From an uncultured delta proteobacterium (lineage in GTDB: Bacteria; Desulfobacterota; Binatia; JACPRU01), in assembly GCA_963745025.1 (NCBI GenBank), contig CAVUWD010000010.1, positions 160,001-224,000 on the forward strand: a stretch of 64,000 nucleotides of DNA. Direction: 5' to 3'. Of this stretch, positions 22,350 to 46,252 are shown piece by piece; position 1 is the stretch's first letter, and every line of letters begins with the position of its first letter. The notes under the pieces are model-generated. The model had not been told where the DNA came from. It saw nothing but the letters and a program-made list of their open reading frames with translations, and did not search any database. Both the position numbers and the translations under genes were made by a program.

Positions 22350-22354
22350 CGACA

Positions 22355-23686: not shown

Positions 23687-23701
23687 AGCGCAGGGCGTCC
23701 T

Positions 23702-24181: not shown

Positions 24182-24210
24182 GTGGCTTGGTCTCCTCTTT
24201 GATTGCTGAC

Positions 24211-24226
24211 AGCAATTCGCTTGCCA
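24211..24226 (-). promoter_or_regulatory. sigma-54 motif upstream of the CBS-cytochrome c operon
   Basis: TGGCAAGCGAATTGCT. Confidence 0.7.
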
Positions 24227-24303
24227 CCCCTAGAACTCGACTTTCCCGTCGGTGCGCTCGTGCTAGTATTGCGATACGCGCTGCCGATCGAGGGCGCGTT
24301 CGT

Positions 24304-25353
24304 ATGTCTTTCCGTAGTCTGCGTCTGCGACGTGTCGGTAACGACGGTTTTCTGGTGGCTCGGTCTGAAGGAAAGCTGCATCTCAACCGCTCGGCCGAGG
24401 CCGCATCGCCATGGCGACTGCGGCGTCGGAAGCTTCGGCGACCGCGGCGCACGACCGGCAAGGAGCGCCGCTGGCTGAACCCTTACTGGGGGCCGTTCAA
24501 GTGGACGGAGCGGAACGTGGACCGCTTCGCTGCGCGGCACATCTATCCCCACCTGCTCGGCATCTGGCACACTTACTGTTGGCTGCTCGAGCGACGTTTC
24601 GAGGTGGCCGAGGCGACGATCGAGCCGCCCCTTTGGCCAAGCGATGCGGCGGATCTCCGGGTCCTGCTGCTGAGCGACATTCATGCTGGCGCCTTCCTCA
24701 AGCCGGAGGTGTTGGGCTCGCTTCTTGGCACGCTCATGGACCTGAATCCCGACGTCGTCGCCGTCGCCGGTGACATCGTCGAGGGCAAGACCGAGGATCT
24801 CGACGGTTTCCTGCCCGCGCTCTCACTACTCGCCCGAGCTCCCCTCGGTGCGTGGTACTGTCATGGGAACCACGATTACTACACATTCGCGCCCGAGCGC
24901 ATCCGCGCAGAGCTCGGCTCGATCGGCATCCGCACGCTCCGCAACGAATCGGTCATCCTCGGCCACCGCGGAGCGTGCGTGGTGGTCGGCGGCATCGACG
25001 ACCGCATCCTCGGCGGTCCCGATTGGGAGCAGCTCGTCGCGGTGAACGGCCCGCCCCATCTTCTGCTCGCGCACAACCCCGACGACTTCTACGAGGCCGA
25101 GCGGCGCCGGGTGGCGCTGGTGCTTTCCGGGCACACGCACGGCGGGCAGATCCGCTTCCCGAAGGGGCCGCCGCTCATCCGCCAGAGCAAGTTCTGTCTG
25201 GACGAGGGCCTCTACGTGCACGGAGAGACTCTGCTCGCGGTCTCGCGGGGCGTCGGCGCGGTGGGGCTGCCGTGGCGCGCCGGGGCCCATCCGGAAGCGA
25301 TGCTCCTCTGTGTCCGTGCGCCGCGCCGCTCAGGTGGCGCGCCCCAGCGGTAG
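24304..25353 (+). CDS. Metallophosphoesterase (YkuE-like)
   Basis: DIH, GD, GNHD, AHNPD and GHTHGGQ motifs; start uncertain. Confidence 0.88.
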   Translation: MSFRSLRLRRVGNDGFLVARSEGKLHLNRSAEAASPWRLRRRKLRRPRRTTGKERRWLNPYWGPFKWTERNVDRFAARHIYPHLLGIWHTYCWLLERRFEVAEATIEPPLWPSDAADLRVLLLSDIHAGAFLKPEVLGSLLGTLMDLNPDVVAVAGDIVEGKTEDLDGFLPALSLLARAPLGAWYCHGNHDYYTFAPERIRAELGSIGIRTLRNESVILGHRGACVVVGGIDDRILGGPDWEQLVAVNGPPHLLLAHNPDDFYEAERRRVALVLSGHTHGGQIRFPKGPPLIRQSKFCLDEGLYVHGETLLAVSRGVGAVGLPWRAGAHPEAMLLCVRAPRRSGGAPQR

Positions 25354-25358
25354 GCCCG

Positions 25359-25532
25359 ATGCCTTGGACGGAGCTCCGCTACCCGCCCGCCATGGAGCAT
25401 TTGCCCGCGGGTGTGCGCGAGAAGGCGATCGAGATCGCCAACGCTCTGCTGGAAGAAGGTCGGGAGGAGGGCGCCGCGATCCGCATCGCAATCGCGAAGG
25501 CGAAGGAGTGGGCCGCGCGCCGCGATCTGTAG
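25359..25532 (+). CDS. Small DUF2188/ChaB-like protein (57 aa)
   Basis: MPWTELRYPPAMEHLPAGVREKAIEIANALLEEG..AIRIAIAKAKEWA, a recognisable conserved small protein. Confidence 0.8.
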   Translation: MPWTELRYPPAMEHLPAGVREKAIEIANALLEEGREEGAAIRIAIAKAKEWAARRDL

Positions 25533-25543
25533 CTTGGGCGAGC

Positions 25544-26273
25544 CTAGACGGTCTCGAGGCCGCCCGTGCTTCTGAGCGGGGCGGCGCAGATCGGCAGCGA
25601 AGCGGGCCTCTCGAGCCATCTCGCGGCACTTCGTCGTCCGACACCGGCCGGAAGTCGGTCGCGAAGCCGCCGATCGTCAAAAGAGGGCCGGCGTGGTGCA
25701 TTGTCGACCGAGCTCTCGACCAGCTCCTCGAGCAGTCTCACGGTCTCGAGCCGCAGAACCACGGGGACGGCGAGCACGAGGCGCTCGATCGGCTGGCGGC
25801 GCAAGGCGCCGATCGCGGCGACCACGGTGGCGGCCGTGGCTGACGCCGTCGTCGACGAGGATGGCCGTCGCGCCGGCTGGAAGCTCGAGCGGCTCGCCGT
25901 CGCGGAAGAGCTGCTGGCGGTCGCGCGATGCTCCACCCGCTGCTCCGCCGTCTCGCGCGACACGTGCGCGCGCCAGGCTTCGCTCCTCTCGGCGGTCGCC
26001 GGATGTCAGATAGGGCTCGCCGCCCTCAGCAACGGCGCCGATGGCGAAATCGGGATTCTGCGAGGCGCGCAGCTTGCGGGAGATGATGACGTCGAGCGGA
26101 GAGCTCGAGCTCACGGGCGATCTCCGCCGCCGGCACGACGCCGCCGCGTGGCAGGCCGAGCACGGACCGCGCGCTGCGCCTGCCGATAGCGCTGCGAGCC
26201 GCCTCGAGAGCAGCGCAGCCCCCCTCGCGACGGTCGCGGAACCGGCTGGGAAGGCATCGCGGTCGGGGTCCAT
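25544..26273 (-). pseudogene. Phosphoribosyltransferase (Rv0571c/Rv2030c N-terminal type) with multiple frameshifts
   Basis: RFRDRREGG, VLGLPRGGV, LDVIISRKL..NPDFAIGAVAE, ILVDDG, LVLAVPV and DFRPVSDDEV distributed over three frames. Confidence 0.8.
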
Positions 26274-26298
26274 GGGCGATCGCACGGAAGCTCAAGGA

Positions 26299-26314
26299 TG
26301 CAAGCCACGAGCCA
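26299..26314 (-). promoter_or_regulatory. sigma-54 motif upstream of the PRT pseudogene
   Basis: TGGCTCGTGGCTTGCA. Confidence 0.55.
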
Positions 26315-26621
26315 TCGAGTGTCTGCTGTGGCAGGGCAGCGCGATCGGCTCGAGGCGGGTATCGCAGGTCTCGAAAATGCAAAGCTCGGCGACCACGCGT
26401 TCCCAAGGGTAGGAATGGCCGCGGCGGCGCCAGGCCTGGGTCCGCGAGGAACTCGACGCGGCGGTCGGCCAGAAACACGGAAATCCAGGTTCCCTCGTTC
26501 TCCTCCGTGTCCGGGACCCGCAGGCGCCAGGGGAAGATCGGCCCCGACGGTCTTCTCTCCGCACTCCTTCTTTGGCAAAAGAAGCTTGCCTTCGCATAGA
26601 GTAAAGAAGGGGCGGGTAGGA

Positions 26622-27116
26622 ATGCGTATCCGGCGAATTCTCGTACCGATAGATTTTTCCGCCGGCTCCGACTACGCGTTGAAGTACGCGGCGGTTCTCG
26701 CTCGCGAGTTTGGAGCCCGGATCATCGTCTTCCACGCTCTCGAGCCGCTCATCCTTGGCGATATCTATGGATCCCCGGGATCCCCGGAGATCGCCGGCCT
26801 GAACGAAGAGTTGAGGCGTTCTGCGAGCCGCCGCGTTACGCTCCTCGTCGCCCGGCTCAGAAAACGGGGACTGCGCAGTCAGGGCGTGATCGAGCACGGC
26901 TCGGCCGCACACGCGATCTTGGAGCAAGCGGCGAAGTCGGCCGATCTCGTCGTGATGGGGACCCACGGTCGAAGCGGATTCTCGCGCCTGCTGATGGGAA
27001 GCGTCGCGGAGAAGGTCGTGCGCGGCGCGCGCCATCCTGTGCTGACGGTCCGCGAGCCCCGACGACCGGCGAGACGGCCCGCGCGAGCGCGATCCCGCCG
27101 CGGAGCGAAAGATTGA
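26622..27116 (+). CDS. Universal stress protein
   Basis: RILVPIDFS; DLVVMGTHGRSG..MGSVAEKVVR. Confidence 0.92.
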   Translation: MRIRRILVPIDFSAGSDYALKYAAVLAREFGARIIVFHALEPLILGDIYGSPGSPEIAGLNEELRRSASRRVTLLVARLRKRGLRSQGVIEHGSAAHAILEQAAKSADLVVMGTHGRSGFSRLLMGSVAEKVVRGARHPVLTVREPRRPARRPARARSRRGAKD

Positions 27117-27523
27117 AGTTTCGCCGAATCCTCGTGCCGCTCGCGCTCGACGCGGGCGAAGCCCCTGTGTTGGCCTTCGCCACGAAGCTCGCGAGCGTGG
27201 ACGGCGGAACGATCTTCCTGCTCCACATCCTAGCCGAGAGCGAGAAGCAGCCCGCGGCGCCGCGCACACAAGAGCTCGCACGGACGGCGCTCGAGGAGAT
27301 GGCGCGCGTGAACCTCGATCGCGAAGTTCCCCGAGAGATCTTGTTCGGGACCGGCGATGTGCCCTCCGTGATCATCGATTTCGAACGGGTGATCCCCGCC
27401 GACCTCGTCGTGATGAGGACGCACGCTCGAGTGGCGCTGCTACGGAAGGCGCTCGGCTCGGTCACCGAACGTGTCGTTCGCGAGTCGCTGTGTCCGGTGC
27501 TCGTTGTTCCGCAGGCGATCTGA
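27113..27523 (+). CDS. Universal stress protein
   Basis: RILVPL; DLVVMRTH..LGSVTERVVRESLCPVLVV; TTGA overlap with the upstream USP. Confidence 0.88.
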   Translation: MKFRRILVPLALDAGEAPVLAFATKLASVDGGTIFLLHILAESEKQPAAPRTQELARTALEEMARVNLDREVPREILFGTGDVPSVIIDFERVIPADLVVMRTHARVALLRKALGSVTERVVRESLCPVLVVPQAI

Positions 27524-27534
27524 GAGAGCCGGAG

Positions 27535-29661
27535 TCATTTCCCGCGGCGCGCGGAATTATTTCCGCCGAACTTGGTAGCCGAATCGCGGGCGGGCACGCG
27601 CTCGAGATCGGCGAGCCACACCTCGGCGACGCCGTCCGAAGGCGCGCGCCAGTCGGCGCGCGGCGAGAGTGAGCCGCCCGATCCGACCTTGGGGCCGTTC
27701 GGAAGCGCGCTCCGCTTGAACTGGGTCGTCTGGAAGAAGCGCTCGAGGAAGACGCGCAGCCACTGCTTGATCACCGCGAGCGAGTACTCGTCCTTCCATG
27801 CGCTCCACGCCAGGAAGGCGACCTTCGAGGGCGCGTAGCCGAAGCGCAGCACGTGGTAGAGGCTGAAATCCTGCAGGGTGTAGGGGCCGATCACCGATTC
27901 GCTGAGCTGCCCCGGCTGGCGCGGGCTTTCGCCGGGTACGAGCTCGGGGCTGATCCCGGTGGCGAGCACCTGGGCGAGCGTTTGGCTCGCCGCCGAGTCG
28001 AACTGACCGGAGTCCGCCACCCATTCGATCAAGTATCGGATGAGCGTCTTCGGCACGCTCGCGTTGACCGCGTAGTGTGACATCTGGTCGCCGACACCGT
28101 AGGTGCACCAGCCGAGCGCGAGCTCGGAGAGATCGCCCGTGCCGACAACGAGCGCACCGTGCCGGTTGGCGAGGCGGAAGAGATGGCTGGTTCGCTCGCC
28201 GGCTTGAACGTTCTCGAACGTCAGGTCGTAGACCTTCTGCCCGCGCGCATAGGGATGACCGAGATCCTCGAGCATCTTCCGGCACGAGGGCCTAACGTCG
28301 ATCTCTTCGGCGGTCGCACCGATCGCTCGCATCAGCTGCCAAGCCTGCCGCTTGGTGCGAGCGCTGGTCGCGAAGCCGGGCAGGGTGTAGGCGAGGATGT
28401 TCTTCCGCGGCAGCGAGAGCTCGTCCATCGCGCGTGCGCAGACGAGCAGCGCCTGCGTCGAATCGAGGCCCCCGGAAACGCCGATGACGAGCTTCTTCGT
28501 GCCGGTAGCCCGCATGCGCGTCACCAGACCCTGCACTTGGATGCGGTACACTTCCTCGCAGCGTGCATCGCGCGTCTGAGGATCCGCCGGCACATAGGGG
28601 AAGCGAGCCACCGGGCGCTCGAGAGCGAGCCGGCCGCTCGGCAGCTCGAGCGAAAAGTCGATCGTGCGAAATCGTGCGACCTCCGTTGCGTGTCGGCGGA
28701 CCGACTCGCCGAAAGAGTTTTGGCGCATGCGGTCCGCGGCGAGCCGATCGAGATCGACGTCGGCGACGGTGAGCTGGGGGTCGCTGGAGAAGCGTTGCGA
28801 TTCGGCGAGCAGCGTTCCGTTCTCCCAAACCATCGCGTGCCCGTCCCATGCCAGGTCGGTGGTGGATTCGCCGGGTCCGGCCGCGCTGTAGAGATACGCG
28901 GCGAGGCAGCGCGCCGACTGGTTGGCGGCGAGCTCGCGACGATACTCGTGCTTGGCTACCACGACGTTGGAGGCCGAGAGGTTGGCGACGACCGTGGCGC
29001 CGGCGAGCGCGGCGAAGCTCGAGGGCGGCGCCGGGACCCACAGGTCCTCGCAGATCTCCGTGAAGAGCACGAGCCTCGGCTGCTCGCGGAGCCGGAAGAG
29101 AAGGCCTGGGCCGAATGGGGCGGTCTGTCCGGCGATCGTGACCTCGTCGCGGCTGCAGGTGCTGCCCGGAGTGAATTGGCGTAGCTCGTAGAACTCCCGA
29201 TAGTTCGGCAGGTACTGCTTCGGCACGACGCCGAGGAGCCTGCCCCGACAGATCAGCGCGGCGCAGTTGTAGAGGAGCGCATCGACGGCGACCGGCAGTC
29301 CGACCAGCACGGCAATCGATAGGTCTCGCGTGCGCGTGAGGAGAGTCGCGAGCGCGCTCTCGGCACCGCGCAGCAGCGCCTCTTGGTGAAAGAGGTCCTC
29401 ACAGCTGTATGCGGAGAGCCCGAGCTCTGGAAACACACAGACGATCGCTCTCTTCCGCGCGGCCTCTCGGATCAGCGCGACCGTGCCCTCCGCGTTGAAC
29501 GCGGGGTCCCCGACGCGCACCGGCGGGGTGGCCACCGCCACGCGCACGAACCCATGCGTATAAAGACTGAAGAAGCTCGAAGGAGCTCGAATGGGTCGAC
29601 TCGTTCTCCCCACTGGGGGTATCGCCGGTCGAGAAGCAGCGGTGAGGTCGGTACTCTTCAC
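27535..29661 (-). CDS. nadE: Glutamine-dependent NAD+ synthetase
   Basis: [44 protein letters not shown] and SPRADW motifs. Confidence 0.95.
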
Positions 29662-29677
29662 GAAAGCGCGCGCGAAT

Positions 29678-31120
29678 TCAACGGCTTCTGCACCCCTCTC
29701 CCCGTTGGGGAGAATTCGGCGCCCGAAGCAAGCGGTGCGCCGCCAGACCGAGCCCGAACCAGCCGAGGCTCAGCCACACCGAGGAGTCGCCGCGCAGAGC
29801 GAGAATCGCCACCACCGAGAGGCTGGCGGCGGCGAAGATGAGAGGGGGAACGGGGTAGAGAGGCACGCGGTACGGGCGATCGAGATCGGGCTGGCGCCAC
29901 CGCAGCACCATCACGGCGAGCACGGAGAGCGCGGCCGTGACGAGCATCGCGCTCGAGGTGTAGGCGAGAAGCTCGTCGAAACGGCGGAAGGTGACGAGCA
30001 CGATCGACCATGCCGCTTGAAGCCAAAGCGCGGCTACCGGCGCGCCGGTTCGCGGATCGCGTCGGGCGGCAAACGCGAGGCCCTCGCCGTTCCGCGCCAT
30101 GGCTTGCACGATGCGCGATCCACCGAGCACGGTGCCGTTGATCGAAGCGAGGACGGCGCAGAGGATGAGCAGCGTGGCCACGGCTTCGCCCGCGGTGCCG
30201 AAAAGCTCGCGCGCAGCTGCCGTTCCCGCCTCGCCGACGAGCGCCAGGCGGCGCAGCGGGAAGAGCGCCGCGAAACCGACACAGAGAACGAGGTACACGG
30301 CGGCCACGCCGGCGGTGCCGCCGATGAGCGCTCGCGGCAGGCTCCGCTCCGGATGGCGGATCTCGCCCGCCACGTAGATCGCGGCGTTCCAGCCGGAGTA
30401 GGCGAAGTAGACCGGCAGGAAGGCGGCGGCCAGCGCGCCGGCATCGAAGGCCCCGGCAGGGGCCGCAACCCCTGGCAACCCGCGCACGGCGACGACGACG
30501 CTGCTGGTGGCTGCGAGAAGAACGACCGGCACGCCGGCAAGCAGCAGCTCGACTCGGCCCGAGACGACGATCCCGAGATGGTTGATCGCCGTGAAGGCGA
30601 CGACGATCAGGCTTGCCCAGAGGGGCGCCGCGGCAAGCTCGACGCCGAGAAACCGAATCGGCTCGGCGGCGGCAGGACCGAGGAGCGCCGGCAGCTGGAA
30701 GGAGGCAGCCGCCACGGCCAGCGCCGCCAGCGATCCCGGAAAGATCGCGAGAATTTGCACGACGCCCGCGGCGAATGCGATCGGCTTTCCGTAGGCCTCG
30801 CGCAGGTAGACGTACTCGCCGCCGGAGCGCGGCATCATCGCGCCCAGCTCGGCGACCGAGAGGGCGCCACAGAGCGCGACCACTGCGCCCGCGGTCCAGA
30901 CGAGAAGGTACCAGACGGTCGAGCTCACGTGAGCGGCGACCTGTGGTGGGCCGATGAAGATGCCGATGCCGAGCATCGAGCCGGCGACGAACGAGGCAGC
31001 CTGCCAGCCCCCGGCGCGCGGCGGGCCCTGTTCCGTCGGCGCCGCGGCTGCGAACGTGGCTTCGGGCGCCGGTCGTGCTCGCGGACTCTTGCCGCCTTGG
31101 ATCGCGTGCGTGCCGCTCAT
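29678..31120 (-). CDS. APC-family amino acid permease
   Basis: [30 protein letters not shown] and RPYRVPLYP motifs. Confidence 0.92.
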
Positions 31121-31378
31121 CGGAGGTTAAGGCCTGGAAGCACCGCCGAGCCGCCCGTTACGTGAGTGATCGCGTTGCGGTCGTATTCGTCGTGCGACCG
31201 ATACGAGGCGAAGGAGCGCAGCATCACCTCGACGCGGTCGATCCAGACACCCACGGCTTTGAGTCCCACGGCAACACCATAGTTCGTGAAGGCGAACTTC
31301 CTAGCGCGGGGATCGGGCTCACTGCAAAAATAGCCGCGCGTCGAGACGCCGCAGGACCTCCGCGACTTCGGCGTGCAT
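31117..31378 (-). pseudogene. Internally deleted hypothetical gene remnant
   Basis: ATG overlaps the upstream stop (MHAEVAEVLRRLD), joined out of frame to GYFCSEP..KFAFTNYGVAVGL..DEYDRNAITHV..PG, whose TGA overlaps the permease ATG. Confidence 0.55.
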
Positions 31379-33365
31379 CACGCCGGTCCGTAAAGCGAGA
31401 AGGGATGCGATCGCGGGAAGCCTCGGGCCGCGGGCTCGGTGATCGGGTGCACGCTACGGGCCTCGTCGAACCAGATGTACTCGTCGAACTGGTGGGGCAA
31501 GGATGCGTGCAGGTAGTGGCTCGCGAGCTCGGTCTCGGGGCGGTAGACGACGCCGATCGCACGCTCGAGGCGCGGCGCCTCGAGCTCGAAACGAACCTCT
31601 GGCCGGTTCGGCTCCCGCAAGTGGAGTAGGAACGCTGCGACCGCCGAGTCGTGGCAGAGCCGCTCGTAGCTCTCGGGATGTGCGGGCCGGACCTTCATGA
31701 TCTGCATGGGACCGTCCCACGCGCTCGCCGCCGCCACCGTGCCGTGATCCGTTCCGAAGCCGATCAGGAACGCGCGATCGCCGTATGCCTCGCGACAGAG
31801 CGACCCGACGTTCAGCTCCCCGCGTATCCCCATTTCCGTGGCGGCGGCGTCACCGAGGTGCGAGTTGTGCTCCCACAAGACGGCCTTCGAATCGGGCCCA
31901 TGAAAAAGCAGCAGCGCCTGCAGGGTTTCGAACATGTGCCGGTCGCGGAGATTCCACGACTCGACTCCGCCGTAGTACATGACTCGGTAGTAGCGCTCGG
32001 CGTCGGCGATCAGCCGCGCGTTCTGCGCCGCATCGAAGTAGCGCTCGCCGTCGCGCTCGGAGTACTCGACCTGCCGTGCCACCATGTCGCGGAGCATCGC
32101 CACGGCCTCCTTCTCGCAAACTCTGTAGCGGCCGGTGGTCGCGGCACGACCGTAGGTGGCGGCGTCTCCTTCCCAGGGAGTCAGGCATCCGTAGCGCTCG
32201 CGCGCGACGTTCGCCGTCGGCGGATCGACGCGGTCGAGGTAGTCGAGGACCAGGCGGATCGAGGTGTACATGCTGTAGAGGTCTAGGCCGAAGAAGCCCG
32301 CCACCCGAGGCCGCCGCACGGCATTCCATTCGCGGAGCCACTCGACGAAGCCGAGAACCTCTTGATTGCGCCACATCCACGTCGGGAATCGCGCGAAGGC
32401 GCGCCAGGCGCGGTCTACTTCGGTCATCCCCTGGACGTAGCGGTTGACGCGCATCGCGTCCGGCCAGTCGGCCTCGACGGCGACGATGTTGAATCCGCGC
32501 GAGCGGATGAGCTCCCGCGTGAGGCGTGCGCGCAACCGGTAGAACTCCGAGGTCCCGTGCGTGGCCTCGCCGATCAGCACGAGCCGCGCGTTGCCGATGC
32601 GCTCGAGGAGCGCTCCGAGATCCGCTTCCTCGAGATCCTGGAAGGGCTCCGCGACCTCGCGGATCAGGCCGGCCACCGTGGCCGGGCGGCTCGGCGGCCG
32701 CGGCGATGGCGCCCGTTCCTCGACCTCCCAGCCTTCGGCGCCGATGAGGGGGACGAAGCGGACGGCGCCCAGGTCTTCCTCCGAGAGCTGGCCGTCCAAG
32801 CCACGCGTGATTCGAACGAGCGTCTGGGCTTTCTCCTCCCCGACGGGGATGACGAGCCTCCCCCCACCGCGAGCTGGTCGAGAAGCGACGGCGGCACCTT
32901 CGGCCCTCCCGCGGCGACCACGATGGCGTCGTAAGGCGCATGCTCCGAGCAGCCGAGAGTTCCGTCGCCGTGTAGGACCGACACGTTGTCGAAGCCGAGG
33001 TCGCGCAGGCGTCGCGAGGCGATCCTCGCGAGCTCCTCGTGGCGCTCCACGGTATAGACCTCGCGCGCCATGCGGCTCAGGACGGCTGCCGCGTAACCCG
33101 AGCCGGTTCCGATCTCGAGCACTCGATCGCCCGGCCCGAGCTCGAGCGCGGCCGCCATCAGCGCGACGATGTAGGGCTGAGAGATCGTCTGCCCGCTCTC
33201 GATCGGTAGCGGCGTGTCCTGGTAGGCAAACTCCGCGAGCTCCGGCGGTACGAAGACCTCGCGCGGAACGGATCGCATCGCCGCGAGCGCCGCCGGGTCG
33301 CGGACACCGCGCGCCGCGATCTGGGTCTCGACCATCTTCTCGCGTTCGGCCTGCTGGTTCTTCAC
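31378..33365 (-). CDS. pcm: Protein-L-isoaspartate O-methyltransferase fused to an erythromycin esterase domain; frameshift at the C6 run 32860-32865
   Basis: QTISQPY and VLEIGTGSGY; adding one G restores VGGRLVIPVG..VRFVPLIG into GEATHGT, AVEADWPD, WEHNSH and ERAIGVVY. Confidence 0.88.
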
Positions 33366-33374
33366 GCGAGGTGC

Positions 33375-33935
33375 CTAAGCCGCTCGTCCGCCGATCGGTA
33401 CCAAACTGCTCGCCTGCGGCCCCTTTTCGCCCGCTTCCTCCGCGAAACGTACCTCCGTGCCGATCTCCAGCCGGTCGAAGCTTCCTTCACGGACGCTGCT
33501 CTGGTGAAAGTAGATCTCGCGACCGTCCGGCGTCTCGATGAAGCCGTAACCCGCTTCGGGGAAGAGCTTCGCGACCCGACCCCGCAGCGGCTGGTCGTGT
33601 GTCTTCACGTCCGCCCGCACCTCGCGCGCATAGTCCTCGATCTGGCGCGTCGCCGCCTCGAACGCGTCGCGCAGCGCGACGTAGAGATCCTGGTGCGCGC
33701 CGTGCTCGGCCGGGTCGCGCTTGACGACGATCTCGCGTCCGGGAACCGAAACGTTGATGCGCACGTGATAGACGTTGCCCTTGTGGTGCCGGTGGTGCTG
33801 CGCCTCGACCATGACGCGGCAACTCGTGATGCGCGGGTAGAAGTGGTCGAGCCGATCGGCGTATTCCCGTACGCGAGCCTCTATGGCTTCGGACGAAGGA
33901 ATGCCGCGGAACGAAAGCTGTAGTGGAAGCTGCAT
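33375..33935 (-). CDS. HPF/RaiA ribosome-associated protein fused to a cold-shock domain
   Basis: MQLPLQLSFRG..ITSCRV..HHKG; GYGFI..IYFH..GEKGPQAS. Confidence 0.9.
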   Translation of the reverse strand: MQLPLQLSFRGIPSSEAIEARVREYADRLDHFYPRITSCRVMVEAQHHRHHKGNVYHVRINVSVPGREIVVKRDPAEHGAHQDLYVALRDAFEAATRQIEDYAREVRADVKTHDQPLRGRVAKLFPEAGYGFIETPDGREIYFHQSSVREGSFDRLEIGTEVRFAEEAGEKGPQASSLVPIGGRAA

Positions 33936-33972
33936 CCGTCTCTCTCCTATGGGCTCGAATGTAAACCGTCCG

Positions 33973-34431
33973 TCACGCCGCGATGTCCGCCACTTGCGGC
34001 CTCGCAAGCCGCTTGAAGTCCAAGTACTTCATGCGAATGCTCTCGGTGTGAGTGCCTGCCTGAAAGGCAATGTTCGTGTCGTCCTCGAGAGTGCGATCGA
34101 CGATCACCGGAAGCCCAAAGAGGTTGCCGAAGGGCGGCATGGCGCCGGTCTCGCACTGCGGGAACATCCGTTCGAACTCCTCCTCGGAGGCGAGACGAGC
34201 TTCTTTCTGTTGCACCGCGGCTGCGAACTTCACGAGATCGACCTTCTTCGGCGCCGGAAGCACCGCCATGAAAAAGCCGTTCGGCACCTTGACGATCGCA
34301 ACCTTCGCGTGCTCCCGGCCCGGCACGTGCTCGGCAGCCGCCACCTCCTGGGCCGTAAAGGCGATCCTGTGCGCGATTGGTTGGTACTGGACTCCGCTCG
34401 TATCGAGGAACTCCTTCAGCTTGGTAATCAT
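33973..34431 (-). CDS. YbaK/EbsC-family aminoacyl-tRNA deacylase
   Basis: AKVAIVK, FPQCETGAMPPFG and FQAGTH motifs; GGAGG RBS. Confidence 0.9.
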   Translation of the reverse strand: MITKLKEFLDTSGVQYQPIAHRIAFTAQEVAAAEHVPGREHAKVAIVKVPNGFFMAVLPAPKKVDLVKFAAAVQQKEARLASEEEFERMFPQCETGAMPPFGNLFGLPVIVDRTLEDDTNIAFQAGTHTESIRMKYLDFKRLARPQVADIAA

Positions 34432-34607
34432 GACTGTACCTCCCTTTCTCCGAGATATGTAAGCAAGGAACATACAACGCCCGCGGGATGGATCATTCCG
34501 GTTGCCAATTTACCATCGATGCGAAAGCAGGCATGCTGAATTCCCAGAACTGGGAGCCTCCGTTCTTAGACGGCTGCTGGCGCTCGCGAAATTCGATTGC
34601 GGCGGTT

Positions 34608-34623
34608 TGGCAAGCGGATTGCG
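34608..34623 (+). promoter_or_regulatory. sigma-54 motif upstream of the avidin gene
   Basis: TGGCAAGCGGATTGCG, nearly identical to the 24211 motif. Confidence 0.7.
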
Positions 34624-34661
34624 AGGACGGTGGGTAAGGAACGAGAGGCAGGGAGGTCAAG

Positions 34662-35081
34662 ATGGCGATCACGCTTTCGGGAACTTGGTACAACCAGCAC
34701 GGTTCGGAGCTTCGGATCCAAGTCGACCCCGAAGGGAAGATCGATGGCAGCTTTCGCAGCGGGGTGGGATTCCCCGAAGCCGGGGAGGAGTTTCCCGTCA
34801 CCGGGTTCGCCCAAGGCGACCTCTTCGGATTCACGGTCAGTTTCGGGAAGTACGATTCGGTCACGTCGTGGACCGGTCACTCTGGCGTGGAAGACGACGA
34901 GGAGGTTCTTTCCAGCCTCTGGCACATGAGCGTCGGGCTGCTGCCCGGAACCGCCTCCGAAGGTCAGCTCTGGAAGGGCGTCTGGGCCGGAGCCGACGTC
35001 TTTCGCCGCGAGCGGCGTGAAGCGCGTCGCGGCTCGCGAGTGGCCCCATCGCATCCGATGATCCCACCCGCGGGCTGCTGA
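34662..35081 (+). CDS. Avidin/streptavidin family protein without a signal peptide
   Basis: GTWYNQHGS, GSFRSGVG, GFTVSF, SVTSWTG, LWH and WKGVWAGADVF align with streptavidin GTWYNQLGS, GTYESAVG, GWTVAW, SATTWSG, QWL and WKSTLVGHDTF; GGAGG RBS. Confidence 0.92.
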   Translation: MAITLSGTWYNQHGSELRIQVDPEGKIDGSFRSGVGFPEAGEEFPVTGFAQGDLFGFTVSFGKYDSVTSWTGHSGVEDDEEVLSSLWHMSVGLLPGTASEGQLWKGVWAGADVFRRERREARRGSRVAPSHPMIPPAGC

Positions 35082-35104
35082 ACGCGGGCTGGCATCAGGT
35101 ATCA

Positions 35105-35157
35105 GGCCTCGGGCTTCAGGAAAGGACTTCGCTGAGTCCTTGCTGAAGCCCGAAGCC
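35105..35157. repeat. Heptamer-periodic hairpin (REP/terminator-like) after the avidin gene
   Basis: TCGGGCTTCAG/CTGAAGCCCGA plus AAGGACT/AGTCCTT stems; preceded by GGCATCA-GGTATCA-GGCCTCG-GGCTTCA. Confidence 0.6.
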
Positions 35158-35283
35158 GGCGACGCGGCCTTTCGATGAGGATGTCCCGCCAGACTTTTCC
35201 GAACCGGGATTAGTGACGCCACTCTCGTGGAACGAATGGTGATCTGCGTGCGGGGTGGCAGGTGGAAATACGACGACGGCCGC

Positions 35284-36348
35284 GTGAGTCCGCGCACTCA
35301 CGTGCGAACCTCCATTTGGGGTGTCGCGACGGCGGTGGCCATTGCATTGTCGATCGCGCTACCGTGTGCGGGGGCAGATAGGCCGTACCACGCGCTGCCC
35401 TCGCTCGACGCGCTAGCCAAACCAACGGGACCCAATCTGTGGCTCGAATCCTACACCGAGGTCACTGGCTCGGTTGAGCCGCTCAACGGAGGGGTTCCCG
35501 AGGTACAGATGTCCGCCGAGCCGCGAGCCGCCGAAACGCGCCCGCATCTTTTCTTGGCCTTGGGTATTTCGGCCGGCGTCGTCGGAGGCATGGTGCTGAA
35601 CTCCCTCACGGATGGCAAGACGCAGCCTTACCACTTCGCGACCGAAGGATGGTTCCGCGAGAACACCTATGTCGGCGGAGGAGACAAGGCCTCGCACTTC
35701 GTTTCATTCGAGATCATCTCCCTTGAGCTGGCCACGACGTTCCAGTATCTCGGTTTCTCGCGATGGCAGTCCGAACTCGGCGGATTCGCCGTGTCGTCGC
35801 TGACCGGCCTGACCAACGAGATCTGTGATGGCGCCAACAAGTACGGATTCTCTTATGAGGATCTTGTGATGGATGTCCTTGGGGCAGGCACGGCCGCGCT
35901 CACCTCCGCCACCGGAACAGGTGATCTCATCGGCTTTCGCGTCGGGCTATTGCCAGGTCCGGTGCCGCCCGCGGATGACGACGGCTTTGGAACTGGACGG
36001 GACTACTCGCACGAGATCTACACCGCCGACTTCAAGCTCCGCGGATTCGCCAGACGTCTCAGCCTAGGGGAGAAGGCTGCCAGGTTCGTGCTGGTATCAA
36101 CCACCTACGGCGTGGAAGGCTACCCATACGGAACGTCAGATCAGCAGAAGCGGCTCGTTGGTTTTGAGGTCGGCGTGAACTTCGAGGAGATCCTGTACGC
36201 ACTGGACGTGGACCAACAGAAGTGGTGGGGGATCGTCGCTCATGCACTGTTGGACAACTTTCGCATTCCGTACACCCAGCTCGGATTCCGATACGATCTC
36301 AACCATGGCAACTGGTACGGGCCGGTTGTTGGCAGCACCACGATGTAG
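35284..36348 (+). CDS. DUF2279/YfiM-like exported protein
   Basis: Signal peptide; GGDKASHF and EICDG..GFSYEDLVMD motifs; start uncertain. Confidence 0.7.
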   Translation: MSPRTHVRTSIWGVATAVAIALSIALPCAGADRPYHALPSLDALAKPTGPNLWLESYTEVTGSVEPLNGGVPEVQMSAEPRAAETRPHLFLALGISAGVVGGMVLNSLTDGKTQPYHFATEGWFRENTYVGGGDKASHFVSFEIISLELATTFQYLGFSRWQSELGGFAVSSLTGLTNEICDGANKYGFSYEDLVMDVLGAGTAALTSATGTGDLIGFRVGLLPGPVPPADDDGFGTGRDYSHEIYTADFKLRGFARRLSLGEKAARFVLVSTTYGVEGYPYGTSDQQKRLVGFEVGVNFEEILYALDVDQQKWWGIVAHALLDNFRIPYTQLGFRYDLNHGNWYGPVVGSTTM

Positions 36349-36536
36349 TCGAGGCAGTCCAAGACCGTTTCGTTCGAGTGGCAGTCGTAGCAGGCGGCTC
36401 GAAATCTCGCTTTGACCTCGGGTGGCGCGGAAAAGTCGCTCTCTACCGGGGGGTTGCTGCGCTCTACGCGCACGAGCTGCGCGATGACCAGAAAGGCGAT
36501 GCTGCCGATCCCGAGCATCCTGAGAACGCGTCGCAC
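36349..36536 (-). pseudogene. Truncated heme-binding (Haem_bd-type) cytochrome c domain gene
   Basis: IAQLVRVERSNPPV..AACYDCHSNET; homology stops where the opposite-strand DUF2279 gene ends. Confidence 0.75.
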
Positions 36537-36576
36537 TCGCGCCTCCTCTCCGAGACTCCGCCAATTGCCGTGGAAG

Positions 36577-37026
36577 CTACTTTTCCTGGATCGATCGGAT
36601 GTAGTCGGCGAGGGTTCGTGACTGAAGCAAGCCGGTATACTCGCGATAGAACTGTGTCTTCAGCTCCTCGTCGAAGACCGCGCCCCACACGGGCATCTCC
36701 CGCGGGCCGTGCTCCTTCACCCATCGTCGCCCGTCTATGAAGGAGAGAAGCTTGGGCTCGTCGAGCTTACCCCCGTCCTTCTTTGCGAGCTGGGTGAGAT
36801 CGGTTGGCCTGCGCTTGAGAGTCTCGGCGAGCGGGCCGTCGCCGCGGCACTGAAGGCCGTGGCACGAAGCACAATAGCGTCGGTAGAGAGCCTCGCCGCT
36901 CGGCGAGGTCGGTTCGCTCGAGCATCGCGCGAACGCGAGAAAGACGGCGCTGGCTAGCGAGAGAGACAACAAGAGCCGTGCCGACACGCGGTGGCCCGAC
37001 GCCCCTCCTTGCCCGTTCGCATCCAT
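36577..37026 (-). CDS. Monoheme cytochrome c (paralog of 23279-23686)
   Basis: CASCH; HGPREMPVWG; ends IQEK like its paralog. Confidence 0.9.
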   Translation of the reverse strand: MDANGQGGASGHRVSARLLLSLSLASAVFLAFARCSSEPTSPSGEALYRRYCASCHGLQCRGDGPLAETLKRRPTDLTQLAKKDGGKLDEPKLLSFIDGRRWVKEHGPREMPVWGAVFDEELKTQFYREYTGLLQSRTLADYIRSIQEK

Positions 37027-37032
37027 CGGGCG

Positions 37033-38646
<1,614 letters not shown>

Positions 38647-38745
38647 GGGACTTCCTCGGCGCCCGCGAACTCAGCGCTTCGTGAGTACCGCCAAGCGCAA
38701 TCGCGCCTCTCTCCTCGGCATCGTCATGACGGGGGCGGAGTCCAG

Positions 38746-39216
38746 CTACTTCTTGCCCTCGATCTGGACAGAAACCTTCTTCGGCGCGAGTTCCTTCGGA
38801 ACCGGCATGCTGATCTCGAGAACGCCCTTGTCGTAGCTCGCCTTGATCTTGTCGGCGTCGACCTTCCCGGGAAGCCGCATGCTGCGCTCGAAGCTGCCGT
38901 AAGCGATCTCCTCGTGTGTGTAGTCTCCCTCTTTCTTCTCCTCCTTGTGCTTGCGCTCGCCCTTCACGGTCAGCACGTCGCCGGTCACACTGACGTCGAC
39001 TTCTTTCGGGGAGACTCCCGGAAGATCCATGCGCACGACGAGGTTGTCGTTCCGCACCAAGCTCTCCATCGCGGGATGGCCTTTCCCCGCGAACGCCGTG
39101 CCTTCGAACGGTGTTCGCCCCATGAATCGGGCGAAGAGGTCATCGAGGTCGTGGTGCCACTCTTCGAGCTCCCGAAAGGGCTCTTCGTGACGTCTCCATG
39201 GGATCAATGAGCGCAT
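38746..39216 (-). CDS. Hsp20/alpha-crystallin small heat shock protein
   Basis: DLPGV, LTVKGER, YGSFERS and ASYDKGVLEI motifs; GGAGG RBS. Confidence 0.95.
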   Translation of the reverse strand: MRSLIPWRRHEEPFRELEEWHHDLDDLFARFMGRTPFEGTAFAGKGHPAMESLVRNDNLVVRMDLPGVSPKEVDVSVTGDVLTVKGERKHKEEKKEGDYTHEEIAYGSFERSMRLPGKVDADKIKASYDKGVLEISMPVPKELAPKKVSVQIEGKK

Positions 39217-39269
39217 GTTCTTTTCCTCCTTCTCTTCTCGGATGACCGAGACATCTAATCGCAGCGAGA

Positions 39270-39285
39270 TGCAATCCCCGGACCA
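39270..39285 (-). promoter_or_regulatory. sigma-54 motif upstream of the hsp20-groEL-cytochrome c operon
   Basis: TGGTCCGGGGATTGCA. Confidence 0.65.
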
Positions 39286-39443
39286 CGCGCTGCAGCGCGA
39301 TTCCGTGCGATCCGGCGTTCGATCCGAATTGCGAACATGAGAATTGCTGGCGTGGCTCTCCCGAAAACAGGAAGAACCGAATGGCTAACTTTCGCTTCAA
39401 GGGTAAGCTCCCGATGCACGGCCAACGTCCTCACACTTCACGT

Positions 39444-40394
39444 TCAGGCCGAGTTGCGGCGGTGCTCGAGGGGCCCGATGCCCGGCCGGTAGATATCTTC
39501 GCGAGTGAACGGAATCGCCGTGACGTTGGCCGCAAGCTTGGACGCGACGACCTGGTAGAGGCCGATCGCGCCTTCGGAGAAGAAGACCGAGGAGGCCGTG
39601 AGGTAGAGACGCCAGATTCGATAGGTCTTCTCCGGGACGAGCTGCAGGGCCTCGCTCCGGTGCTGCTCCAGTCGCTCGGCCCACTGGCGACAGGTCCGTG
39701 AGTAGTGTTCGCGTAGCTGCTCGACGTCGCGTATCTCCCAGTTCACATCCTCCATCACGGACAGGATGTGGCTTACGTGGGTGAGTTCCCCGTTCGGGAA
39801 CACGTAGCGGGTGATGAAGTCCCATTGCGGGGTCCACTTCCAGCGGCGTTCGTGTGTGATGCCATGGCTCAGGAACAGGCCGCCGGGCTTCAGGAGCTCG
39901 CGCACCTGAGAAAAATACGCAGGGTAGTTGGCGATTCCCACGTGCTCGATGATCCCCACCGCCGCGATCTTGTCGTAGAGATCCTGGCCGCGGATCTCGC
40001 GGTAGTCGCGGCACTCGACCTGGCAGACTCTTTCGAGGCCACGCTCGCGGATGCGGGCTCGCGCATAGGAGGCCTGCGACGGGCTGAGCGTCACCCCGTG
40101 TGCTTCGACGCCGTAGTGCTCGGCAGCCCACACGAGGAGACTTCCCCAACCGCAGCCGATGTCGAGCAAGCGCTCGCCGGGCTGAAGCCGGAGCTTGCGG
40201 CAGACGAGATCGAGCTTGTCGCACTGCGCCTCGTCCAGACCACCATCCGGACGGCGGTAGTAGGCGCAGGTGTAGACCATGGTGGGGCCGAGGAAGAGCT
40301 CGTAAAACTCGTTCGAGACGTCGTAGTGGTACTGGATCGCCTTGCGATCTCGCTCGATGTCCTTCTCTCGACTGCCCTTCAGAGCCGCGAACAT
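39444..40394 (-). CDS. CFA-synthase/TmpB-like SAM methyltransferase, catalytic domain only
   Basis: AIQYHYDVSNEFY, MVYTCAYY, LLDIGCGWG, YVFPNGEL, HY and RIWRLYL motifs; own GGAGG RBS. Confidence 0.9.
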   Translation of the reverse strand: MFAALKGSREKDIERDRKAIQYHYDVSNEFYELFLGPTMVYTCAYYRRPDGGLDEAQCDKLDLVCRKLRLQPGERLLDIGCGWGSLLVWAAEHYGVEAHGVTLSPSQASYARARIRERGLERVCQVECRDYREIRGQDLYDKIAAVGIIEHVGIANYPAYFSQVRELLKPGGLFLSHGITHERRWKWTPQWDFITRYVFPNGELTHVSHILSVMEDVNWEIRDVEQLREHYSRTCRQWAERLEQHRSEALQLVPEKTYRIWRLYLTASSVFFSEGAIGLYQVVASKLAANVTAIPFTREDIYRPGIGPLEHRRNSA

Positions 40395-40425
40395 TGCGCG
40401 TCCCTCCTAGCTCGGCATCCGTTCC

Positions 40426-41541
40426 TCAACCCATGCCGAATGCCCCCTCGAATACCAGGCGCCTTCGTAGCCAAGCGTTGCGGCAAATCAGTGAGCCGAG
40501 GGAGAGCAACCAGCGGCGCGGGAGAAGTCCTCCGAGCCGCGTCGCAAAGCCGGGCTCACCGGCTCCGAAGCGGGCGTCGATTGCTGCGCGATACTCGCTC
40601 GCCAGCTCCTCTTCGTCTCTGCCGCCGAGTCGCTGTAACACATGAGCCGCCGCGAGATTTCCGCTCGTCACGGCCGGCGCGATGCCCTCTCCCGAGACGT
40701 CCCTGGCGAGCCCGGCCGCATCCCCGACCAAGAAGAACCCCGGGCCCGCAACTCTTCGTGGCGCCGTGGTGCGGAGGGAGTAGGCGTGGCCGCGAAACGG
40801 CTCGAGCTCGATCCGGTGCGGCAGCCGCCCGCTCTCGACCAGCCGCTCGACGAAGGCCTCCGTCCGGCGGTGAAGACCGCGCCCGTCGTCGAGCGCGCCG
40901 ATCCCCAGGTTGAGAAAATCCCCCTTCGAGAAATACCAGCCGTAGCCGCGCAGATCGGGCTCCGGAAAGAGCTCCGGAACGCCGGGACGAGGGGCGATCG
41001 CGGCGACCCGGCCCTGCCCGATGCGAGTCTCGCTTTCCTGCGTCACTACTACCGATTCTCGCTCGGGGATTTCGCCGAACGCGCGAGCGACCGGGCAGTG
41101 GTGACCGCCGGCGCCGATCAGTAGCGGCGCGACGAAATCACCCCGCGGCGTCTCGACGACGAAGCGGCCGGCGCGCCGCTCCAGGTGCGATACCCGCACG
41201 CCGTCGATCACCTTGGCACCGGCGCCGCGGGCGCGTTCGAGCAAGAAGTGATCGAACTCGCGACGTACGATCCCGAAGCTCACCGTGTGATCCCAAGCCG
41301 TCTCCCACACCGCGCCGGCGAGCTCGAGCGTGGCACGCGCGAAGGGCTGCAGCGTCAACGGATAGCTTGCGGGATCGAGCGCGAGCTCCGCCCACACCCG
41401 ACGTGTCACCCACCCCGCGCAGAGCTTCACACGCGGGAATCGAGCGCAATCGAGAACGAGAGCCCGCACGCCGGACTGAGCAAGCCGCCACGCGGCGGTG
41501 CTGCCGCCAGGTCCACCTCCGACGATGATCGCATCGTACAT
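40426..41541 (-). CDS. FAD-dependent oxidoreductase, geranylgeranyl reductase family
   Basis: IIVGGGPGGS, FPRVKLCAG, RREFDHFL, GYGWYF and VGDAAGL..SGEGI motifs. Confidence 0.9.
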   Translation of the reverse strand: MYDAIIVGGGPGGSTAAWRLAQSGVRALVLDCARFPRVKLCAGWVTRRVWAELALDPASYPLTLQPFARATLELAGAVWETAWDHTVSFGIVRREFDHFLLERARGAGAKVIDGVRVSHLERRAGRFVVETPRGDFVAPLLIGAGGHHCPVARAFGEIPERESVVVTQESETRIGQGRVAAIAPRPGVPELFPEPDLRGYGWYFSKGDFLNLGIGALDDGRGLHRRTEAFVERLVESGRLPHRIELEPFRGHAYSLRTTAPRRVAGPGFFLVGDAAGLARDVSGEGIAPAVTSGNLAAAHVLQRLGGRDEEELASEYRAAIDARFGAGEPGFATRLGGLLPRRWLLSLGSLICRNAWLRRRLVFEGAFGMG

Positions 41542-41569
41542 GCGGAGGAGTGCCCTCCTTGGTCGTTAC

Positions 41570-41914
41570 CTAGACGTTGCCGAGCGCGCGCAGGATCGAC
41601 AGACGATCGCGGAGGCCGAGACGAATCGCCTCGATCTGGTTGGCGAGCCCGATCGCCACGAAGAGGTCTCCCTCGACGTCGAGATCCCCTTCGGCATACG
41701 CAACCGCGAAGCGCAACGTGTTCGGCCGCAACACGAGCGCGCGGAAGGTCTCTCGGCGCCGGAATACGAGCGTGAATGGCTCCCCGCTCGGGCCGAGATG
41801 GACGTGCGTCCCATCCCACAGGCGAACGGCGAAGCCAAACGGCACGTTTCCGAAGATACGGCGTAGAATCGCTGCCGCCGCCCCGGCCGATCCTGTCTCC
41901 CCTGCGATCTTCAT
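41570..41914 (-). CDS. Stand-alone N-terminal (lipid-binding) domain of a CFA-synthase-like enzyme
   Basis: FAVRLWDG..FTLVF..AYAEGDLDVEGDL, the typical CFA synthase N-domain. Confidence 0.8.
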   Translation of the reverse strand: MKIAGETGSAGAAAAILRRIFGNVPFGFAVRLWDGTHVHLGPSGEPFTLVFRRRETFRALVLRPNTLRFAVAYAEGDLDVEGDLFVAIGLANQIEAIRLGLRDRLSILRALGNV

Positions 41915-42013
41915 TCGCTCAAGAGCATCGCTGCCATGCGAACGCCGACACACCGATTGTCCGCCCGCGGCGGGCCGTTATCGAGGCGAAAAGGGCCCAT
42001 CCCATGCGAATCG

Positions 42014-42505
42014 TCACTTTCGCGACCGAGCGTCCGTCTCCGTCTGTCCGTCCGGCGGCGGCTCGAGAGCGGCCAAGTGGGCTTCGAGGAGATCGCTGCG
42101 GGTGAGGATCCCGACGAGTCGGTGATTTTCGACGATCGGCACGGCGCCGATCCGCTCCCGGCGCAGCAAGCGGACCGCTTCGGCGAGGCCAGCGTCGGGG
42201 TGAAGCGTCAACGGGTTCGCGGTCATCACCATCTCGACCGACACCTGCTCCGGGCTCGAGAACGATTTTCGTCCCTTGCGCATGTCCTGCCGCAGGACGT
42301 CGAGGATCGATGGAAACGCATCGCGGAGATCCCGATCGGTGACTATGCCGACGAGCCTGCGATCCTCGACGACCGCCAGCTGGTTGATGCGATTCTCTTC
42401 GAGCAGCTGGCGAGCCCGGGTGACGGGATCGAGCGGCTTCACCGTCTTGACGGGGCTCGTCATCCAGCTACGGACTTTGTCTGCGGGGCCTGAAGGCTTG
42501 CTCAT
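42014..42505 (-). CDS. CBS domain protein (close paralog of 23702-24181)
   Basis: WMTSP..RINQL..TDRDLRDAFPS..RERIGAVPIV shared with the paralog; GAGGAG RBS. Confidence 0.92.
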   Translation of the reverse strand: MSKPSGPADKVRSWMTSPVKTVKPLDPVTRARQLLEENRINQLAVVEDRRLVGIVTDRDLRDAFPSILDVLRQDMRKGRKSFSSPEQVSVEMVMTANPLTLHPDAGLAEAVRLLRRERIGAVPIVENHRLVGILTRSDLLEAHLAALEPPPDGQTETDARSRK

Positions 42506-42564
42506 TCCGATCTCCTCTTCGTAGAGCCCCAACGCGCAGGCTGGGCCAAGCCGCTCACAGAAAA

Positions 42565-42580
42565 TGCAAGGCCCGGGCCA
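42565..42580 (-). promoter_or_regulatory. sigma-54 motif (leftward of a divergent pair)
   Basis: TGGCCCGGGCCTTGCA. Confidence 0.65.
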
Positions 42581-42710
42581 ATGCGCAATGCTATGGGCCA
42601 GGCGACGAGTACTCGAATCGCTCGGAATCGGCCTTCCAACCATCGAGAAACCGCGTACTAGTTTCTCTCGGAATCGAGAACGGCCCTGGTCGAAGAGCCG
42701 TGCGCACTCG

Positions 42711-42726
42711 TGGCACGGAATTCGCT
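42711..42726 (+). promoter_or_regulatory. sigma-54 motif (rightward of a divergent pair)
   Basis: TGGCACGGAATTCGCT. Confidence 0.65.
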
Positions 42727-42753
42727 GCCTCATCCTGGCGAGGAAGGCTCAGC

Positions 42754-43290
42754 ATGTCAGGCCGGCGGATCTATCGCGAAGACGTCGAGATAGCGCAGGC
42801 TGGGGAGAGCGTCCAGCAAGCTGCGCGCCGCATGCGCGAACGCCGCGTCGGCACCCTGGTCGTCGTAGACGACCTCAGGCATCCGATCGGGATCATCACC
42901 GATCGCGATCTTGCCGTGCGCGTGCTCGGGGAAGAGCGAGATCCGGTGACTACGCAGGTCGGAGATGTGATGAGTCGACCACCGGTGGTCGTCTCGCAAG
43001 ACACCCCGACCGAGTCTGCGTTGGCGCTCATGAGTACACGAGCCCGAAGCTTTCGCCGCCTTCCCGTCGTCGATGGCAGGGGTCGCCTCGCCGGTATCAT
43101 CACCGTCGACGGCGCTTTGACGCGAATCGCAGCGGAGCTCGCGTCGATCGACCGCGTCATCGAGGGACAGACGCCATTTCTCACGGACGGCCTCGTCCGG
43201 GAAAACGCGCCTCCCCAGGTTAAACGCGGGCCGCGCGCCGTGTCGCGCCGACCCGCCGCTCTGGGCGAGACCAAGGGCCGATCGACGTGA
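42754..43290 (+). CDS. CBS domain protein (Rv2626c/Hrp1-like)
   Basis: AARRMRERRVGTLVVV..GIITDRDL..RRLPVVD..GIITVD. Confidence 0.9.
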   Translation: MSGRRIYREDVEIAQAGESVQQAARRMRERRVGTLVVVDDLRHPIGIITDRDLAVRVLGEERDPVTTQVGDVMSRPPVVVSQDTPTESALALMSTRARSFRRLPVVDGRGRLAGIITVDGALTRIAAELASIDRVIEGQTPFLTDGLVRENAPPQVKRGPRAVSRRPAALGETKGRST

Positions 43291-43320
43291 TACGGTCGCG
43301 CGAAAGCCGGTGACTTGGCG

Positions 43321-46113
<2,793 letters not shown>

Positions 46114-46172
46114 GAGAATCGGTGCCCGCGATTCGCCACAGCTTCGCGAGCCACCCGGGCGCAGCCCGGAAT

Positions 46173-46188
46173 GGGTCCGGGGCTTGCA
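46173..46188 (+). promoter_or_regulatory. sigma-54 motif upstream of the malic enzyme gene
   Basis: GGGTCCGGGGCTTGCA, nearly identical to the 39270 motif. Confidence 0.55.
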
Positions 46189-46252
46189 TGTTCCAACCAC
46201 GGAGAAGCGCGACGATGGAAGATGCCTTCCGGTTTGGATTGGAGGTCGATTA

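Follow-up and report, generated by a model that had tools for sequence, protein, structure and literature searches.

The usual view of avidins is that they are secreted and serve in defence; a 2021 survey of bacterial avidins reported signal peptides in about half of them (PMC8033661). The role of bacterial avidins and of the tails that plug some of their binding sites is stated there to be open (PMC8033661, PMC3344845, PMC5398887). In streptavidin C1 of Streptomyces cinnamonensis (7CQ0), residues 180-188 occupy the pocket of their own subunit; an Asn-Pro pair was proposed as the key element, and the tail did not block biotin binding (PMC7924230). Bradavidin (2Y32) and, reportedly, hoefavidin also carry a C-terminal intrinsic ligand. 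That of bradavidin binds between subunits (PMC5398887) and was proposed to make the protein selective for free biotin over biotinylated proteins (PMC3344845). More generally, intrinsic avidin tails were reported to make large biotinylated ligands bind less well, and a host-sparing effect was suggested (PMC3344845). Strep-tag, Strep-tag II and the related HPQ/HPM library peptides are free, laboratory-selected ligands; HPQ/HPM peptides contact Ser88, Thr90 and Trp120 of streptavidin, with the Gln bonding Thr90 (PMC5608804).

The window analyzed here is a stretch of 64 kb from the genome of an uncultured delta proteobacterium of the Binatia. It contains an avidin-family gene whose product has no leader and ends in a tail resembling both types of ligand (Table 1).

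Table 1. Features of the avidin locus (positions in the window).
Feature	Position	Strand	Basis
Dormancy/low-oxygen-type gene island around the avidin gene	20646..62782	.	Pfam scan
Sigma-54-type -24/-12 site, TGGCA-N6-TTGC, 54 nt 5' of ATG	34608..34622	+	pattern and close relatives
Upstream in-frame TAA, 8 codons 5' of ATG	34635..34637	+	
GGGAGG, Shine-Dalgarno-like, ahead of ATG	34651..34656	+	read from sequence
Leaderless avidin-family gene, 139 aa (P0002)	34662..35081	+	ORF, Pfam and alignments
Eight-stranded avidin barrel with biotin-pocket core, residues 5-116	34674..35009	+	
Basic linker, poorly conserved, residues 117-128	35010..35045	+	
P-S-H-P motif (kept) and variable next residue, residues 129-133; predicted self-plug	35046..35060	+	
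G+C-rich stem-loop 3' of the stop codon, without U-run	35110..35152	+	fold prediction, without shuffle control

The initial annotation had described the product as a leaderless cytoplasmic avidin, and this description was confirmed. The in-frame TAA upstream of the start excludes a signal peptide, and strand 1 of the barrel begins at about residue 7 in the AlphaFold model. The protein matched PF01382 over model positions 2-115 of 116 (Pfam; E 1.5e-20, 74.2 bits against a cut-off of 24), the sole match to this family in the host genome. The single-chain AlphaFold barrel has eight strands (mean pLDDT 90) and superposed on streptavidin with Z 17.4 and an rmsd of 2.0 over 111 aligned residues (VIA superposition). 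As in tamavidin 2 (2ZSC), the barrel begins near the N-terminus, and residues 7-121 of the tamavidin chain match residues 4-117 of the query. Tamavidin differs in being fungal and in having a proposed defence role, and we know of no link between it and dormancy. The stem-loop behind the gene is possibly a terminator or an mRNA end structure. In three studies of paddy, soil and sediment, RNA libraries yielded contigs that span the avidin gene at ~97% identity; such contigs are no proof of transcription. The DUF2279 gene of the window was considered as a silent control for these contigs and dropped: it was uncovered, but the relatives concerned may be without it.

Homologues were collected as 33 sequences from one search and the best 150 of 481 from another. 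Six proteins longer than 260 residues were left out; this left 177, in 171 of which the whole barrel was present. It should be noted that ranking was by similarity to the query with its tail included, so that tail-bearers are somewhat favored. One protein (P0108) was left out because its avidin half stands behind a tape-measure-like stretch, which looks like an assembly chimera. Conservation of the S-H-P motif, a check proposed in the initial annotation, was examined in these best-listed homologues: 96 tails had at least 16 residues, and S[HY]P was present in 64 of them, compared with a mean of 1.9 and a maximum of 7 in 2000 rounds of tail shuffling. On the sequence side, the refuting outcome named in the initial annotation, a motif that is not conserved, was thus not observed. 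In 55 of these 64 tail-bearers the motif Ser was located 15-18 residues past the last barrel Phe (F114). When the best-listed homologues were divided by barrel identity to the query, the motif was found in all 27 proteins at 50% or above, in 25 of 38 at 40-50% and in 12 of 106 below. In the alignments the linker and the sequence after the motif vary freely and S-H-P is constant.

The four residues SHPM are encoded by bases 35049-35060 and follow a basic linker, as had been claimed. Among the 64 best-listed tail-bearers the residue following P-S-[H/Y]-P was V in 16, T in 14, L in 14, M in 6 and F in 3. Since V, T or L stands there in 44 proteins and M in only 6, the kept unit is P-S-[H/Y]-P and HPM is a trait of the query's sub-lineage only. 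Thus, of the Strep-tag-like HPM tail proposed earlier, the S-H-P core holds; HPM as a conserved motif, and a Strep-tag-type His-Pro-Gln/Met as a family trait, were rejected on these counts. The C-terminus of one homologue, P0045, reads S-H-P-Q-F (the Strep-tag II core) and that of another, P0061, S-H-P-M-F. A role of the motif His as a metal ligand was disfavored, Tyr being found there in 4 of the 64 proteins and in loci L022-L026. Most tail-bearers (57 of 64) fell into one weakly supported clade of 73 proteins (FastTree 0.76). By a hydropathy rule, rather than SignalP, a hydrophobic N-terminal stretch was present in none of the 64 tail-bearers and in 28 of the 107 other best-listed homologues. 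In one group of relatives (P0024-P0030 and P0036, at loci L013, L017, L018 and L042) the tails run beyond P-S-H-P into a conserved, amphipathic-looking segment, and the avidin gene lies immediately downstream of a PEP synthase gene; hydrogenase or HypF genes are near it in L013 and L017.

The path of the tail was examined in two single-chain AlphaFold models, in which its pLDDT was 62-68. In a structure comparison with 48,161 solved chains, the 50 best-listed matches were inspected. Avidin chains aligned only to residue 117-119, with the exception of streptavidin C1 (7cq0); the bradavidin chain ended at model residue 117-118 in both models, short of the query tail, and no alignment in the Foldseek and VIA PDB lists went beyond residue 120. 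Residues 3..134 of model 1 aligned with 48..187 of 7cq0 (123 residues, rmsd 2.9, Z 14.7, 27% identity), and residues 3..130 of model 2 with 48..181, a register two off from that of model 1. If the end of the model 1 alignment is ungapped, His131-Pro132 would lie over Asn184-Pro185 of 7cq0, the alignment giving end points only. Self-plugging, as put forward in the initial annotation, therefore gains from the agreement of the modelled tail path with the self-binding peptide of streptavidin C1 and loses from the low tail confidence and the difference in register. On these models a plug within the same subunit, in no particular register, is moderately supported; the path drawn by AlphaFold may also be an echo of full-length streptavidin in its training set.

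Compared with streptavidin C1 and full-length streptavidin (2BC3), our protein has the same eight-stranded barrel, most of the biotin contacts and a C-terminal peptide built around an x-Pro pair; the return of this peptide to the pocket of its own subunit is shown for streptavidin and modelled here, with low tail confidence. Streptavidin differs in that it is secreted, comes from Streptomyces and has an Asn-Pro plug core, whereas the present family has Ser-His/Tyr-Pro and, at this locus, a dormancy-type island; the query linker is also shorter, with no helix predicted. Bradavidin differs in its signal peptide and its unrelated tag sequence (PMC5398887). The likeness to Strep-tag-type peptides lies in the S-H-P core and in the receptor, equivalents of Ser88, Thr90 and Trp120 all being present in the query, whereas the Gln that bonds Thr90 is replaced by V, T, L or M in most natural tails. 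Because the residue after His-Pro is mostly V, T or L rather than Gln or Met, the tail is equally near to streptavidin's Asn-Pro plug and to the Strep-tag.

The pocket map of the initial annotation was reproduced in our alignments. The retained streptavidin equivalents are N11 (N23), S15 (S27), S33 (S45), S66 (S88), T68 (T90), W70 (W92), W87 (W108), W104 (W120) and D112 (D128), and Phe replaces Y43 (F31) and W79 (F61). Four further replacements at the pocket rim had been missed: H13 (L25H), F37 (N49F), M89 (L110M) and W108 (L124W), which could shift the specificity. Among the best-listed tail-bearers, H13 (86%), F31 (81%), M89 (91%) and W108 (72%) are typical, the equivalents of N23, S27 and D128 are 95-98% kept, and W104, the counterpart of the Trp120 that neighboring subunits of tetrameric (strept)avidins donate to each other, is kept in 94%. 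A lowered affinity had been argued from the change at W79, which is a weak argument, as tamavidin, a natural biotin binder, has Phe at this position (PMC7924230). Our literature search found no paper on the effects of Y43F or W79F on streptavidin affinity.

A core of seven residues (equivalents of N23, S27, T90, W92, W108, W120 and D128) was intact in 55 of the 64 tail-bearers and in 17 of 70 short-tailed proteins among the best-listed homologues. The core was intact in 86 leaderless proteins, among which 13 were short-tailed; 10 of these 13 had an N-terminal extension of at least 24 residues, which leaves 3 with neither tail nor extension. The association between tail and intact pocket is inseparable from kinship, as just 2 independent pairs had support (p about 1); for co-evolution of the tail with F31 or with loss of the signal peptide there were likewise 2 such pairs. 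Five short-tailed proteins (P0098, P0112, P0114, P0145 and P0183) share a Trp-containing N-terminal extension of ~25-30 residues without a hydrophobic leader, possibly an N-terminal plug.

Control of the gene by sigma-54 had also been claimed. The interval given in the initial annotation opens at 34608, which is the first base of the sigma-54-type site, whereas the ORF itself starts at 34662. In the 64-kb window the strict pattern occurred 3 times against 0.17 expected, and genome-wide it was not enriched (20 copies, compared with 15-26 for other spacings). We retained the pattern only because of the placement of its copies: 6 of the 20 lay within 10 kb of a gene for a universal stress protein (USP; 5.6% at random, 0-4 for other spacings), and a ribosome site and start followed 11 of the 20. 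The host genome contains rpoN and over 20 full-length sigma-54 activator domains. Among genome loci, 4 of 19 carry a site upstream of the avidin gene, and among metagenome loci 3 of 18 do, mostly those of close kin (random 1.6% per 250 nt); the site was at the same position in L009, L032, L033 and L034, and a relaxed match was present in L010, L012 and L020. In two relatives (P0010 and P0020) the called N-termini are over-long and read W-Q-A/G-D-C, which is the sigma-54 site translated. Given these counts, sigma-54 control is likely in the host lineage, as judged from sequence, and the wider claim of family-wide control was rejected. Three more sites of this type lie on the minus strand of the window: one at 24212-24226 precedes a CBS-pair gene, one at 20462-20476 precedes a small ORF that looks hemerythrin-like, and one is at 16277-16291. 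On another contig of the host genome (C13), three further sites lie next to a cluster of USP genes and to a sigma-54 activator, the latter a candidate for the regulator of the island.

The island around the avidin gene includes genes for glycogen phosphorylase, a CBS protein, USPs, NAD synthetase, an erythromycin-esterase-like protein, PCMT, an HPF-CSD protein and YbaK, together with cytochromes c, GroEL, Hsp20, CFA synthase, NAPRTase, PRPP synthetase, lipoyl PDH subunits and DUF2267. In gene make-up the island resembles the mycobacterial DosR dormancy set (DosR gene list, PMC5309233), a likeness that takes in the domain content of Rv2030c, Rv2004c and Rv2626c. As markers we used USP, CBS, Hsp20, PEP synthase, NiFe hydrogenase, LonC, PRT, esterase, HPF, AAA_33 and DLH. 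Eighteen genome loci encode an S[HY]P tail, and 14 of them contain at least one marker gene, compared with 6.2% of random 12.4-kb windows of the host genome. In this comparison the markers were picked post hoc from the loci themselves, some of the loci belong to close relatives, and a single genome provided the background. The tail-bearing loci without a marker were L007 (3.4 kb), L016, L021 (6 kb) and L025, and the tail-less L029 sits in a similar dormancy-type context. The dormancy link of the initial annotation is thus strengthened by a neighborhood repeated across phyla and weakened by the post hoc choice of markers. A first locus search with a broad alignment gave no usable pattern. No biotin-carrier, lipoyl-carrier or bioB gene was seen in the 55 loci, many of which are only 1-2 kb, and no defense or secretion family was found among 121 neighbor proteins (Pfam scan). 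The host itself has bioB, four biotin-carrier domains and several lipoyl domains; no BioY match was found in its genome (93% completeness).

Several genes close to the avidin gene have features of their own. The HPF/ribosomal S30AE protein (33375-33932, minus strand) is fused to a cold-shock domain, and HPF matches also flank the avidin gene in L032, L040, L041 and L055. A one-base frameshift near 32830-32910 appears to split the PCMT gene (32361-33365, minus strand); at the split, RNA-library contigs differ by single bases, so that either a misassembly or a lesion of the strain is possible. The GroEL copy (37033-38646, minus strand) adjoins Hsp20 and is without the usual Gly-Met tail, and an RNA-library contig of one relative skips 37039-38417, which means that this strain has lost most of the gene. 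The interval 35227-36536, which separates the avidin gene from the cytochrome c genes, is taken up by DUF2279 and haem-binding-domain genes; no DUF2279 gene was found at the corresponding position of L009, and a recent insertion is possible.

On the reading that we favor, this leaderless avidin with an intact pocket core may quite plausibly hold free biotin in the cytoplasm during low-oxygen dormancy, its P-S-H-P tail being predicted to fold onto its own pocket. The gene would be switched on together with the island, through sigma-54 in the host lineage. The tethered tail would act as a weak built-in competitor, displaced by free biotin and only poorly by bulky biotinylated carboxylases, so that the four biotin-carrier proteins of the host would be spared; a tight, unplugged avidin beside biotin enzymes should be toxic (PMC8033661). 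Biotin freed as metabolism winds down would be held in the cell and given back on regrowth, either by slow release aided by the tail and the lost Y43 hydroxyl or by proteolysis. It should be noted that the tail of streptavidin C1 does not stop biotin from binding, and release from such a store is therefore without an explanation by precedent.

The rim replacements typical of the clade (H13, F31, M89 and W108) would also suit a pocket retuned to lipoate or lipoamide, to desthiobiotin or another biotin precursor, or to a His-Pro peptide of a partner, with the tail gating the site. Such retuning would agree with the absence of biotin genes nearby (55 loci) and with the lipoyl PDH cluster in the window's island, and the equivalents of T90, D128 and W120 could have been retained for the tail itself. 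We consider it unlikely, because the ureido-binding equivalents of N23, S27 and D128, of which lipoate would have no need, are almost invariant in tail-bearers, and for lipoate also because the relatives' 55 loci contain no lipoyl domain. The four biotin-carrier domains of the host could instead be the targets: as a dormancy brake, the avidin would bind the biotinyl arm of acetyl-CoA or other carboxylases and stop fatty-acid synthesis, its tail tempering the toxicity. Further shutdown factors, among them the HPF-CSD protein, are encoded in the island, and L007 and L021 adjoin thioesterase or fatty-acid hydroxylase genes. However, linkage to carboxylase genes is absent from the 55 loci, and intrinsic tails are reported to disfavor large biotinylated ligands (PMC3344845), for which reason carboxylase inhibition ranks below biotin storage, the other option of the initial annotation; we regard the brake as quite unlikely.

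Defense, the usual proposal for avidins including the fungal tamavidins (PMC8033661), would here take the form of a stored anti-predator or anti-competitor protein, plugged in the cytoplasm and turned into a biotin scavenger after lysis or ingestion and clipping of the tail. The streptavidin tail is cut off on maturation (PMC8033661), and the basic, exposed linker and the patchy distribution would be in keeping with this. As the neighbors are metabolic and stress genes, with no defense or secretion family among the 121 scanned, this account appears improbable. Low tail confidence in both models would be expected if the tail worked outside the pocket, as a tetramer clamp or protease tag, and the gene were a passenger of a stress island; protease genes of the Lon-like and FtsH kinds stand on the flanks of L014, and L020 has a Lon-like gene nearby. 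This seems highly improbable, since the narrow spacing between barrel and motif and the free sequence after it fit a tethered ligand, and both models trace the tail path of 7cq0.

Self-plugging avidins were already known. In our literature search, which covered mostly papers open without subscription, neither an SHP-tailed clade without leader nor a link to dormancy or to a dormancy island was described. Four motifs of the clade were absent from the supplements of the 2021 survey (PMC8033661), in which line breaks could hide a match. It is possible, if rather doubtful, that a widespread branch of avidins serves as an intracellular vitamin-hibernation factor, a cytoplasmic store of biotin, gated by a Strep-tag that evolved in nature, in dormant Binatia, Myxococcota, Melainabacteria and Cyanobacteria. 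If so, the peptide libraries that yielded S-H-P against streptavidin would have found anew an ancient ligand built into this family, and SHP-tailed avidins would be ready-made tag/receptor pairs, offering natural S-H-P tails with their receptors to protein engineering. A leaderless, plugged branch would also allow a direct test of whether an avidin controls its own cell's biotin.

Named relatives came from deltaproteobacterial and Binatia genomes, Myxococcota, Obscuribacterales and one cyanobacterium. Matches in the ESM Atlas were avidin clusters only, the nearest of them mostly Binatota, and viral contigs gave one weak match of 25 residues among 74 candidates, which was set aside. The gene is patchy (5 of 7 genomes in the family, 2 of 400 in the phylum sample), and the family relative at L008 has an avidin gene truncated by an early stop, which indicates that the gene can be lost. 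Four secreted, animal-like avidins (P0033, P0034, P0180 and P0184, the last from Ptychodera flava) have His-Pro or His-x-Pro at a matching distance from the barrel, which suggests that the plug motif is old or has arisen more than once. Natural tandem avidins with two barrels were also observed (P0048, P0110, P0117, P0149, P0160 and P0170).
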